Of a stretch of 64,000 nt of DNA, positions 33,949 to 36,952 are shown piece by piece (position 1 is the first letter of the stretch; each line of letters starts with the position of its first letter). The notes below the pieces were generated by a model, which was given only the letters and a program-made list of their open reading frames with translations, did not search any database and had not been told where the DNA came from. The DNA comes from Thermoprotei archaeon (lineage in GTDB: Archaea; Thermoproteota; Thermoprotei; Thermoproteales; B15-G16): assembly GCA_003649205.1 (NCBI GenBank), contig QMRC01000001.1, positions 160,001 to 224,000 of the forward strand, read 5' to 3'. Made by a program: the position numbers and the translations under genes.

Positions 33949-34428
33949 CTATACCTTGTCTCTCCTCTTGTTGAGTATTTCTAAGAGTTTATCAATGTAG
34001 TGAGCAATTGTACTGTATACTCTGAGGTATGTAGTGATATCATGTCCAAAGGGATCCTCTATATCGTCGTCAATACCTGTGATGTACCCAATCAATGTCG
34101 TTACTGGTACATCAATTCCATGAATCTCACAGATGCACTTAACTTCATCAACTAGATTACGCTCCATGGTCAGCACTAAATCTGGTCTAAAGACCTTAAT
34201 TACATCACCTACGTACCTAGGTACGTGATCACTTAAATTCACACTAAATATCCTAGCCGCTTCAATAGCTTCATGCGGTATTCCATATCTGTACGGTACT
34301 GTACCTCCTGAGCTAGCTACATGAGGTAAATTGATATCTCTACACCTCTTATTGAAGTACCTCTCAGCAAAAGGACTCCTACACACATTACCGATACACA
34401 CAAAGACTATTCTCATGATTTCTCTCAA
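33949..34428 (-). CDS. Low-molecular-weight protein phosphatase (LMW-PTP family)
   Basis: P-loop VCIGNVCRSPFAE, SSGG, H.PR, LTME, DIEDPF. Confidence 0.9.
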   Translation of the reverse strand: MREIMRIVFVCIGNVCRSPFAERYFNKRCRDINLPHVASSGGTVPYRYGIPHEAIEAARIFSVNLSDHVPRYVGDVIKVFRPDLVLTMERNLVDEVKCICEIHGIDVPVTTLIGYITGIDDDIEDPFGHDITTYLRVYSTIAHYIDKLLEILNKRRDKV

Positions 34429-34705
34429 GTAATGTGGGTTATTTTAGAAATTCTCTTAGTTACATACCTATCCTCAAGTGATTAGAAGGTGATACAGCTG
34501 GCTTAGCTTAAATTGCGTGATCTCAAGTTGGAGTTGTACCATGACTACATCGTTATACCAAATTATGTAACTTGTCAATCTCGTTTAGAGAAGTTACTCG
34601 GGATAAGGAGCATACTTAGTGATTTGTACATGAAGGTTAATCGACGTACTTCCATATTGAGATGAGAAAACGTTTATCTTTTAGCTTGTTCTTCTTTCTC
34701 ACAGC

Positions 34706-35299
34706 ATGCTGTTACTCCTAAAGCTGACAGAGGAGGGCTACGTTCCAGTTCTATTCTCAAGAGAGGACGATCCTCTAGATGAGGAACGTGATCTAGAGTT
34801 ATTGACTTCCTTGACTGTAGCTGTGCTCGGTTTTGCATCAATACTATCACATGACACTGTTGAGCTCAGTACTGATACTGGTCAGAAGCTCTTTGTTGTA
34901 ACTTCTCAGAGCGGATACTGTTTAGCTATTTGGAGTGATAGCGAAATCAATAGGAATTTAGCTAGGGAGACATTACGTAAACTCGAGGAGCTGCATAAGA
35001 GTAGTAAACTTACGCCTCTTCACATGTGCGTTGCTGAGTCCCTACTACGTAGTAATTTACCTCCCGATGTTCTTGACTTTGTTGGGAGAGCTATTGACTT
35101 TGCTGAATCCGAGTTTAAGTATGCTCTTGACCTATCAGTCAATTTCACTGAGCTTCCAGATGACGTGAAGAAGAGAATGATTGCTATCCTCGAGAAGCTA
35201 CCTATGAAATTTGAGGAATTACTTCACTATGTTTCTGATAGGGATGTCCTTATGGGTATTCTCGAGTTAATTAAGTTAGGTATTCTCATAGTTAGGTGA
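34706..35299 (+). CDS. Longin/roadblock-like domain fused to a C-terminal winged helix
   Basis: Predicted beta-beta-alpha-beta-beta-beta-alpha order with LLTSLTVAVLGFASIL helix; C-terminal KFEELL...ILELIKLGILIV; fold inferred by eye. Confidence 0.6.
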   Translation: MLLLLKLTEEGYVPVLFSREDDPLDEERDLELLTSLTVAVLGFASILSHDTVELSTDTGQKLFVVTSQSGYCLAIWSDSEINRNLARETLRKLEELHKSSKLTPLHMCVAESLLRSNLPPDVLDFVGRAIDFAESEFKYALDLSVNFTELPDDVKKRMIAILEKLPMKFEELLHYVSDRDVLMGILELIKLGILIVR

Positions 35300-36321
35300 G
35301 CTTCATGTTGTGGATGCTCGAAGCGCTCAAAATTGCACGCAAGGTTGATGACTACGTACTGCACTGTGTTTGGGATGAACTCAATAAGCTTGGTATTGTT
35401 GATGAATTGAAGAGAGGTACTGAGCCTACGGTTATTGCCGATAAGTTTGGTCTCGATAGATCACTATTCTTGTCATTGTATAACGCTCTCACTCAAACAA
35501 GACTTATTAAAGCTATTTTAAAAGGTGTTAAGAAACCGAAACTTGGTCCTGAGTTTTCTAAATTTGAAACTGGTATGAGAATGCTTGTTAGAGCTTTCTT
35601 CATGAGGATGCAAGGTAAGGTTCCAGATGAAATGGAGATCTTTGATAGAAGGTTCTACATCTTGTCGTTTAAGTCTATACATGTAAATAGAGCTATTATC
35701 AGAGCAAAAGCGATAGGACTTAGAGGTCTTGGCTTTAAACCTAAAAACGGTGTTAAGCTTATTGAGCTTGGTGCTGGTTATGGCTCATTTACACTATCTA
35801 TCCTCAGTATGTTAGCTAGATACGGTGTGAGAGACTTCAAGCTAATATGCGTTGACATGAGTGAAGATATGGAAAAGGAATTCTATAAGACTGTGACATC
35901 TGAAATGTTAACGTCATTGAACATACCTGAAAAGTATCTTGAAAATATCGAGTATAAGATTGCTGATGTCTCAGAGCTTCCTAAGTTTGCCAACGACCTT
36001 GGTAAGGAATCCTTCGATTATGCTCTATCCTGCGCTCTTCAGCATTGGGTTAGGAATAGGCATGAGATGTATAGAGGTATTGCTACGTTACTTAAACCTG
36101 GTGCTATTTGGTTTGATGTAGGTTCTCTCTATACTGAGAAGGTTCCTTCACTAATGTCAGTACTTCTACTATTTACGAGGGATTATGCTGGTGCACTTAC
36201 TGAAGCTGATTTAGATGAAATTAGGAAACACCTTGTAGTTGAGAAGGTTAAGACAAGGAGAACTAAGACCTTTACATCAATTCACATCCGAGCCGCTAAG
36301 CCAGTGTACTTGGTGATGTAG
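35296..36321 (+). CDS. Class I SAM-dependent methyltransferase with N-terminal helical/wHTH domain
   Basis: LIELGAGYG, CVDMS, ADVSEL, LQHWV, LLKPGA; GTGA overlap with the upstream gene. Confidence 0.85.
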   Translation: MSFMLWMLEALKIARKVDDYVLHCVWDELNKLGIVDELKRGTEPTVIADKFGLDRSLFLSLYNALTQTRLIKAILKGVKKPKLGPEFSKFETGMRMLVRAFFMRMQGKVPDEMEIFDRRFYILSFKSIHVNRAIIRAKAIGLRGLGFKPKNGVKLIELGAGYGSFTLSILSMLARYGVRDFKLICVDMSEDMEKEFYKTVTSEMLTSLNIPEKYLENIEYKIADVSELPKFANDLGKESFDYALSCALQHWVRNRHEMYRGIATLLKPGAIWFDVGSLYTEKVPSLMSVLLLFTRDYAGALTEADLDEIRKHLVVEKVKTRRTKTFTSIHIRAAKPVYLVM

Positions 36322-36322
36322 G

Positions 36323-36952
36323 ATGAATATTGACATCAGGTCTCTCCTGGAGAGATTGAGGACTGTTAAAGTCATGGTAATTGGCCCCCCGTATGCAGGT
36401 AAGACTACATTACTGCAAGCTATCGATAGTAGGTGTAGGTGTATCACTACACAAGCAAATTCTCCAGCTCCGTACAGGAGTACAGTGTTTATTGATAGTA
36501 GCTGTATTGTTTTTGATTTGAATACCGGTAGGTGGTTCTCAAGTGGATCTGAGTTCAGTAATTACCTTCTGGAATCTCAAAGTGCTATTGACAATGCTGT
36601 GAAACGCTTTATCAAGGTTAAGTTCATAGGTACCCCAGGTCAGCGAAGATTTGAGTATCAACGTGATATACTGTTTAGTCTACATAAGGTAGTTGATGTT
36701 GTTGCTCTTGTCGTCGATTCTGCTTCTGAAAGTAGCATCAATGAGATTCCTAAGTTTCTTGACCTTGTTAAGGCTAAGTTGAGGTATAAGGCTCTGTTAC
36801 TAGTTGCTAATAAGCAGGATATACCTGGTGCATTGCCTGGTTCTGAAATTGCTAAGAGATTCGGTATTCAGGAATTTGTTGAGACTAGTGCTCTCCATGG
36901 TTGGGGTGTAGACAGATTTGTCAGGAAGTGCGTTGAGTTAGGACTTAGCTGA
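36323..36952 (+). CDS. Small GTPase (MglA/COG2229-like, Ras superfamily)
   Basis: G1 GPPYAGKTT, G2-like STV, G3 GTPGQRRF, G4 ANKQD, G5 ETSAL. Confidence 0.9.
   Translation: MNIDIRSLLERLRTVKVMVIGPPYAGKTTLLQAIDSRCRCITTQANSPAPYRSTVFIDSSCIVFDLNTGRWFSSGSEFSNYLLESQSAIDNAVKRFIKVKFIGTPGQRRFEYQRDILFSLHKVVDVVALVVDSASESSINEIPKFLDLVKAKLRYKALLLVANKQDIPGALPGSEIAKRFGIQEFVETSALHGWGVDRFVRKCVELGLS

Follow-up and report, generated by a model that had tools for sequence, protein, structure and literature searches.

The use of longin domains together with small GTPases is regarded as characteristic of eukaryotes and Asgard archaea, and other archaea are known for pairs of the roadblock-MglA type. Dimers of both kinds of domain are described, in the parts of two papers that deal with them, as platforms binding small GTPases (PMC10933270, PMC3521125), and one table entry of a review lumps the two together as "Longin/Roadblock", present in TACK archaea (PMC4917890). 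Here, we describe a cassette of three genes at positions 34706–36952 of a 64,000-nucleotide (nt) stretch of DNA (the window) from an uncultured Thermoproteales archaeon of a hot environment (genome G000). The genes encode a small protein, designated P1, a protein with a methyltransferase fold, and a small GTPase. We regard the cassette as a roadblock/longin-plus-GTPase switch in a form not described before and known from very few sequences, and the reading that we favor, with a probability of about 0.5, is that of a lineage-specific, three-part small-GTPase switch module. The initial annotation of this DNA had stated that no system with this layout was known in Thermoprotei; likewise, a search of the literature (supplements excluded) returned no account of the layout or of a longin-type GTPase partner in Thermoproteota.

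Comparison with described systems

MglA/MglB and the archaeal roadblock-GTPase pairs resemble the cassette in that a GTPase with an Asp-less G3 motif is found beside a small platform protein with an alpha/beta fold, from the roadblock/longin superfamily. Unlike in those pairs, P1 is predicted to have no leading helix, gives a longin-type model with an added C-terminal helical domain, and has no Robl_LC7 match; moreover, the cassette has a constant third member with a methyltransferase fold, and its GTPase carries an insert between G2 and G3. The conservons of Streptomyces (CvnA-D) are composed of a kinase-like sensor, a roadblock protein, a DUF742 protein, and a GTPase. They share with the cassette an Asp-less-G3 GTPase accompanied by a roadblock-superfamily protein and a small helix-turn-helix (HTH)-like protein, and P1 would be equivalent to the latter two fused together. 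However, no sensor-kinase gene was seen in the cassette, which has a methyltransferase gene instead, and P1 matches neither DUF742 nor Robl_LC7.

With the Asgard longins, the cassette shares a predicted fold, as the best structural match of the P1 model is a longin domain from Lokiarchaeota (8yqg, Z 9.7). A chromosome from Freyarchaeia encodes three tandem paralogues of 312–329 amino acids (aa) (L022:4372–7373), each with an N-terminal longin-like part fused to an Arf-like GTPase. These fusions are like the cassette in coupling a longin to an Arf-like GTPase whose G4 region reads ANKQD(L/I)P, but in the cassette the longin-type protein and the GTPase are separate genes of one operon, the host belongs to Thermoproteales, and P1 has no sequence similarity to the longin parts of the fusions.

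According to the part of PMC3521125 that deals with them, NPRL2 and NPRL3 of GATOR1 consist of a longin domain followed by winged-helix-type domains, an order that P1 may share. GATOR1 chains were among the top matches of the P1 model (9o5a_C, the best Foldseek row, and 7t3b_C, Z 8.7). SAMTOR is a sensor with a methyltransferase fold that binds S-adenosylmethionine (SAM), and GATOR1/SAMTOR and the cassette have in common a methyltransferase-fold protein associated with a longin-GTPase system. On the other hand, P1 is far smaller than NPRL2/3, the GTPase of the cassette is not Rag-like, and no relation of P1 or the methyltransferase to NPRL2/3 or SAMTOR was found among PDB sequences.

Organization of the cassette

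The three open reading frames (ORFs) lie on the + strand, co-oriented and tightly packed according to the ORF list, downstream from a motif resembling a B recognition element (BRE) and TATA box:

34667–34678, + strand: BRE/TATA-like motif AAAACGTTTATC, read in the sequence
34706–35299, + strand: P1, 197 aa, ATG start (ORF list)
35296–36321, + strand: class I SAM-dependent methyltransferase, 341 aa, GTG start (ORF, Pfam, motifs)
36323–36952, + strand: small GTPase, 209 aa, ATG start (ORF, Pfam, alignments, profile comparisons)

This arrangement had been proposed in the initial annotation, and both the ORF list and the sequence bore it out: the start of the methyltransferase gene overlaps the stop of the P1 gene in GTGA (35296–35299), and a single nucleotide separates the methyltransferase and GTPase genes at the junction TAG-G-ATG (36319–36325). 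The overlap presupposes the GTG start; with the alternative ATG at 35305, from which the protein begins in the ESM Atlas, there would be a gap of 5 nt. The BRE/TATA-like sequence is also present as it had been read. Its 3′ end is 27 nt 5′ of the first ATG, that of P1, a position that would fit a leaderless transcript, and other samples carry a C>T difference at 34671, inside the motif.

Pieces of all three genes were found in an independent vent metagenome (X2) at roughly 91–99% identity. Among the differences displayed (59 further ones lie outside these counts), third codon positions accounted for 9 of 10 in P1, for both of the 2 in the methyltransferase, and for 16 of 21 in the GTPase. The contigs of two other metagenome runs, X3 and X4, span only small parts of the stretch.

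A second triad in the genus

To verify the cassette, the initial annotation had proposed a search for the three genes in other neighborhoods. Such a search revealed a second triad on contig C4 of the host genome (locus L011; genome 93.8% complete) and its orthologue (L012) in G001, the only other genome of the genus (71% complete). The gene order is different there, the methyltransferase-like gene being followed by those for the P1-like protein and the GTPase, the last two of which overlap by 4 nt. The C4 products are 58% (GTPase), 27% (P1-like, E 6e-9), and 29% (methyltransferase-like, E 1e-35) identical to those of the window. Between G000 and G001, amino acid identity in the second triad is 90% for the GTPase, 93% for the P1-like protein, and 70% for the methyltransferase-like protein, and the ratios of nonsynonymous to synonymous substitution rates (dN/dS) are 0.16, 0.12, and 0.28, respectively; the second triad is under purifying selection. 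Every locus with enough context (3/3) holds all three genes, representing just two independent lineages. Because of this paralogous triad, the purifying selection, and the bias toward third codon positions in X2, we consider the cassette to be more than a chance arrangement.

Converging on the second-triad GTPase gene and overlapping its 3′ end is a 146-aa ORF (L011:5119–5559, + strand, C4; orthologue, L012:4699–5139), which is 90% identical between G000 and G001, with a dN/dS of 0.14, and has no paralogue in the genome. Its elements read by eye as helix-strand-strand-helix-three strands-helix, and it was considered as a roadblock candidate and rejected, as no match came from Pfam, PADLOC, hhalign, or a sequence search of PDB.

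The GTPase and its relatives

The GTPase carries G1 GPPYAGKT (21–28), G3 GTPGQ (103–107), G4 NKQD (163–166), and G5 TSA (188–190), with a conserved Thr54 as the G2 candidate and an insert of ~25–30 residues between G2 and G3; these residue numbers were counted by hand, except for residues listed as invariant in the alignment. Alignments confirmed the G1, G4, and G5 motifs noted initially, as well as the Asp-less G3, in which a Gly occupies the usual Asp site. The G3 motif of the window protein is GTPGQ, and three relatives (the second-triad copies of G000 and G001, and L019, a 1050-nt metagenome contig) have GTPGH. In Pfam, the protein matched Arf (39.7 bits), Ras (32.5 bits), and other GTPase families, while NCBIfam returned the generic small_GTP domain alone, below its cut-off. 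The protein was not assigned to the Arf family: the match was above the cut-off, but its best stretch covers residues 122–186, and G3 lacks the Asp.

In the part of PMC4316618 concerned with this motif, the G3 Asp is said to be conserved in all small GTPases but MglA, and the MglA-type label given in the initial annotation is reasonable for that reason. The label held for G3 and for the sequence profile, which is nearer to roadblock-paired GTPases; it did not hold for the gene neighborhood, where no roadblock gene is adjacent and the longin-type P1 is found instead. In profile-profile comparisons, the triad GTPases matched the roadblock-paired GTPases of sister Thermoproteales families at 99.6% (E 2e-24) and, more distantly, the GTPase portion of the longin fusions from Asgard archaea at 98.8% (E 8.4e-17). 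Against PDB sequences, the triad profile gave Arf/Arl as best matches, mainly via the ANKQD-P region, and the sister-family profile gave Arl8 as well as MglA over the full length (3t12, E 2.3e-13). In the tree, a single clade (support 95/97) united the triad-type GTPases of the window, C4, G001, and L019; a placement of this clade nearer to the canonical or to the Asgard GTPases was not well supported (51/72). Under the MglA-type label, the protein is a divergent offshoot.

A sister family, f2, carries a roadblock-like ORF (165–198 aa, with a leading helix) directly upstream of a related GTPase in 7/7 loci examined, from seven genomes (L003–L009). The G3 of this GTPase reads FG[VTL]PGQ, and its Pfam match is ATP_bind_1 (4e-15); the two roadblock-like ORFs that were scanned both gave sub-threshold matches to Robl_LC7 (E 0.017 and 0.028). 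In genus g5 of this family, a 167-aa AAA_assoc_C protein (Pfam, 2.1e-25) precedes the roadblock-GTPase pair. In G000 and G001, no homologue of the f2 GTPase was closer than the triad GTPases (E 7e-6 and 2e-4), and the profile of the roadblock partner had no match in either genome; the searches of this genus yielded no canonical roadblock-GTPase pair.

The sole Robl_LC7 match in G000 (23.9 bits) is a 262-aa protein on contig C6 (L037:1339–2127, − strand), whose hydrophobic N terminus is followed by a long helical region and then, at the C terminus, by a part resembling a roadblock. Reading by eye, without a library scan, the ORFs of at least 70 aa in its 3.2-kb locus, no GTPase was noticed.

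P1 and its predicted fold

P1 has very few relatives and is nearly an orphan. Among 5.8 billion proteins, a word-based search returned P1 alone; phmmer, run against 1.84 billion cluster representatives, added the relatives P0007 (E 7.6e-12) and P0008 (E 1.8e-8), and a profile search added the C4 paralogue. A 1224-aa phmmer match, P0009 (E 8.6e-4), and four weak matches in the phylum (E 0.002–0.01; ORFs of 316–436 aa) were treated as probable noise.

The AlphaFold2 model of P1 was poor when no alignment was supplied (predicted local distance difference test, pLDDT, 42.3) and reached a pLDDT of 76.9 and a predicted template modeling score (pTM) of 0.75 with a 5-sequence alignment (A1). In the latter model, residues 1 to ~120 are predicted to follow the longin order beta-beta-alpha-beta-beta-beta-alpha-alpha (strands 2–7 and 12–14, helix 23–46, strands 52–55, 61–66, and 71–77, helices 83–98 and 104–116), the first element being a strand. 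There is no coding space for a helix ahead of it, because the open frames (204 codons for P1, and 220) extend just 7 and 5 codons upstream of the starts. According to the part of PMC10933270 that compares the two folds, a longin is a roadblock minus the N-terminal helix, plus an extra C-terminal helix, and the missing leading helix of P1 would be exactly this difference.

A structural search of 48,161 chains, independent of Foldseek, was topped by 8yqg_B, the longin domain of a Lokiarchaeota roadblock-longin protein, at Z 9.7 (root-mean-square deviation 3.2, 111 residues aligned). In this search, ranks 1–19 were all longin-type, spanning model residues 1 to ~120, and the first roadblock was found at rank 20 (3kye, Z 7.8, 86 aligned), MglB (3t1r) scoring Z 7.4; overall, roadblock structures aligned to the model at Z 7.4–7.8 over 86–93 residues. 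In a second structural search, 29 chains reached a Z of at least 8, including FNIP2 (9.6) and the GATOR1 chain 7t3b_C (8.7), and ranks 1–39 were longin-type, with the first roadblock at rank 40. Sigma-adaptins and TRAPP small subunits among these matches were counted as longin folds, which we take them to be. Longin proteins also made up nearly all of the weak Foldseek rows (GATOR1 chains, TRAPP core, Mon1-Ccz1, sedlin, Sec22b, Ykt6, and DENN). As leads only, the ESM Atlas model of P1 (pLDDT 0.64) had sybindin, sedlin, Fuzzy-longin, longin, and roadblock clusters as neighbors (TM-scores 0.42–0.56), and the nearest proteins by language-model features were unnamed Asgard proteins (0.88–0.90).

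The order of secondary-structure elements in P1 had been read from its sequence as longin-type, with no leading helix, and this is in agreement with the AlphaFold2 elements and with the longin proteins heading both structural searches. The proposed check, structure prediction and Foldseek to tell longin from roadblock, likewise ranked longin above roadblock, with neither a leading helix nor a Robl_LC7 match. A longin-type N-terminal part without a leading helix is thus the assignment that the models largely support, and we make it because the match list is uniform and the topology agrees, not because of the Z score. For residues ~127–197, AlphaFold2 predicted helices at 152–162, 169–175, and 179–190 and a strand at 194–196 (pLDDT 84–91). 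This part, barely covered by the structural searches, which spanned mostly residues 1–129, may be helical and winged helix-turn-helix (wHTH)-like, and its end can be read as a winged-helix recognition-helix pattern.

Roadblock proteins match the P1 model too (3kye, Z 7.8; 3t1r, Z 7.4), and the GTPase is by profile closest to roadblock-paired GTPases, so that the cassette could also be viewed as a fast-evolving MglA/MglB pair. P1, whose length about equals that of the sister-family roadblock partners, at 165–196 aa, would then descend from a roadblock whose leading helix disappeared and which acquired a C-terminal helix, the very swap by which longin and roadblock differ in the account of PMC10933270 cited above; it would have no tie to Asgard or eukaryotic longins, and the methyltransferase would be functionally separate and merely co-transcribed. 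However, the methyltransferase-like gene accompanies the pair in both diverged copies, despite the change in gene order, and is under purifying selection even where the SAM motifs are gone, and hhalign found no sequence signal between P1 and the roadblock partners of the sister families (probability 0.5%). We consider this reading possible, but rather doubtful.

The methyltransferase

The protein encoded between P1 and the GTPase is a class I methyltransferase by its Pfam matches, motifs, and Atlas neighbors; initially, it had been read as a SAM methyltransferase. It scored 32.7 bits with Methyltransf_11 (cut-off 21.2) over residues 157–271 of its 341 aa, and several class I families of Pfam were above their cut-offs over residues 146–272. 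Motif I reads ELGAGYG and the acidic VDMS follows beta-2, and the window protein probably still binds SAM. The second-triad proteins of G000 and G001 have lost the SAM motifs, with VEFVGVPYG and VLPS at the corresponding positions. The N terminus of the second-triad protein gave sub-threshold HTH matches (HTH_29 at 6.5e-5), and that of the window methyltransferase, with the same pattern as its paralogue, is read as helical or wHTH-like. The Atlas model of the window protein (pLDDT 0.86) resembles polyketide C-methyltransferase domains (TM-scores 0.66–0.69), but it offers no clue to the substrate because its neighbors are generic class I methyltransferases. Searches against PDB sequences returned spurious ubiquitin-repeat rows alone, and no hint of a substrate came from Pfam, NCBIfam, PDB, or Atlas.

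The initial annotation had suggested a GTP switch that controls, or is controlled by, methylation. In its strongest form, the methyltransferase would be the catalytic heart of the module, methylating the GTPase, P1, or a third substrate under the gating of the GTP switch. The window copy would allow this, since it keeps ELGAGYG and the acidic residue after beta-2 and passes the Pfam cut-offs, and the tight gene coupling suggests co-translation. Nevertheless, the suggestion is weakened by the second triad, where the copy with VEFVGVPYG and VLPS is still selected, so that catalysis cannot be the core shared by the module; the searches for a substrate, as said, gave no clue either. We therefore regard a catalytic heart as unlikely, and the shared role of the subunit is probably not catalysis, because one of the two copies has lost the SAM motifs.

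A more specific analogy is with SAMTOR, GATOR1, and Rag. P1 would then be a minimal NPRL2/3-like longin and winged-helix regulator outside Asgard archaea and eukaryotes, and SAM bound to the methyltransferase-fold protein would be relayed via the longin platform to the MglA/Arf-clade GTPase, as a prokaryotic counterpart of the SAMTOR-GATOR1-Rag logic. The second copy, with its SAM motifs lost and the G3 Gln changed to His, might be a copy uncoupled from SAM. We see this analogy as a long shot. GTPGH in G3 does coincide with the loss of the SAM motifs in the second-triad lineage, a coincidence of one lineage against one, with one intact copy and two related degenerate ones.

A proposed switch module

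In the favored reading, that of a three-part module, a GTPase from the MglA/Arf side of the Ras-like superfamily would be served by P1, which would hold the place of the roadblock (MglB-like) protein of the sister families. P1 would bind the GTPase via its longin-type platform, probably as a dimer, and could set its nucleotide state as a GTPase-activating protein or as a guanine nucleotide exchange factor. The methyltransferase-fold protein would be an integral third subunit rather than a chance neighbor, with a conserved role more likely to be binding, as effector, sensor, or scaffold, than catalysis. All protein-protein contacts, the direction of regulation, and the output are what we infer from the foregoing. 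In favor of the reading are the recurrence of all three genes in two diverged copies, the purifying selection, the longin order of the P1 model together with the longin proteins heading the structural searches, the roadblock-GTPase pairs of f2 and the lack of a match to them in G000 and G001 beyond the triad GTPases, the published description of roadblock and longin dimers as GTPase platforms, and the single clade of the triad GTPases. The interpretation given in the initial annotation is, overall, partly supported: its gene anatomy is largely supported, and its mechanism belongs with these inferred parts.

If true, a longin-type protein at the roadblock site in Thermoproteales would be a natural example of a partner switch from roadblock to longin, and such a switch would not be confined to the line leading to eukaryotes. 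The third gene, of which one copy is intact and the second has degenerated, would make this a compact system in which to study how a GTPase is wired to a metabolite-binding or effector protein.

Several observations weigh against this reading. Regarding sequence, P1 is without similarity to the roadblock partners, the Asgard longins, or any Pfam or PDB entry. It belongs to no Pfam or NCBIfam family; none of the 5 family members had a Pfam match at E up to 10, the longin families (Pfam Longin, Sedlin_N, Sybindin, and others) included, and the PF03259 (Robl_LC7) profile matched no member. There was no match of P1 to PDB sequences at E up to 10, and hhalign against the Freyarchaeia longin-GTPase fusions gave a probability of 0.1%. 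Regarding structure, the fold comes from a 5-sequence alignment, with which two of the five models had a pLDDT of ~76 and the other three of 53–58, and residues 11–60 of the model average a pLDDT of 43–59. Foldseek against PDB gave no match at E of 0.001 or below, the best being 5.7e-3 (9o5a_C), and the structural search tool itself cautions that best Z scores of 7–8 are common for models without clear relatives.

Two further points of this kind concern the genes. The GTPase of G447, an intermediate described below, is preceded by two mostly helical proteins of 535 and 256 aa, with no longin protein or methyltransferase. Moreover, G001 matches the window flanks at 86–88% nucleotide identity, the left match reaching as far as the gene next to the triad and the right one beginning at a ribosomal protein gene, and the window triad is missing from this syntenic place, so that it may be dispensable. 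At the corresponding site of G001 (L041:5384–6456), the left flank is followed by transporter genes and an HTH-like ORF of 189 aa, and the right flank is bordered by a different ORF.

Distribution

Genes of the P1 family were detected in 2 of 62 genomes searched from the order, and a sample of 401 genomes of the phylum gave a convincing match in G000 alone; these figures are samples, so that the family was not found in the genomes searched rather than proven absent. At present, the known sequences of the family come from a pair of genomes and a handful of metagenome fragments. Of 120 genomes searched from the class, 2 had the triad-type GTPase, and one more, G447, had an intermediate. Encoded by L060 (contig C35, 4861–5463, − strand), the G447 protein is the closest relative of the triad GTPases outside the triads (E 1e-21), and it has a comparable insert ahead of G3.

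Mobility and defense

The absence of the window triad from the syntenic site in G001, which has a further P1-family gene (P0008) elsewhere, and the PADLOC matches, of the methyltransferase to mad2 (6.4e-12) and of the GTPases to mad8 (2.7e-4 and 1.2e-8), might suggest a mobile conflict or defense cassette. The matches cover only the Rossmann core (residues 147–271) and the P-loop half (17–135), respectively, which points to generic similarity. MADS, an operon of eight genes (mad1–mad8) with N6 DNA methyltransferase and ATPase-nuclease modules, was rejected as an identification, since the cassette has three genes with partial mad2 and mad8 matches and the other MADS genes are missing from it. 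No nuclease or obvious effector was seen in the cassette, nor was a DPPY/NPPY-type motif when the sequence was read by eye, without a pattern search. The window triad has no tRNA gene and no flanking repeats, and its composition is normal (GC content of 40.4% versus 43.2% for the genome; tetranucleotide distance at the 76th percentile). Viral contigs gave P-loop matches alone, with no viral relatives of the triad, and the second triad sits among housekeeping genes. A mobile or defense role is accordingly highly improbable.

The contig of the P0008 gene in G001 ends 256 nt downstream from it. On this side, 3′ of P0008, is an ORF fragment of 39 codons that is cut short where the contig stops (L025:3–119, − strand, contig C75); it starts with MSF, like the window methyltransferase from its GTG, and is too short to judge. 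In the window, the break in synteny falls exactly at the ORF to the left of the triad (33949–34428, − strand), which carries a CIGNxCRSP motif and is read as a phosphatase of the low-molecular-weight type.

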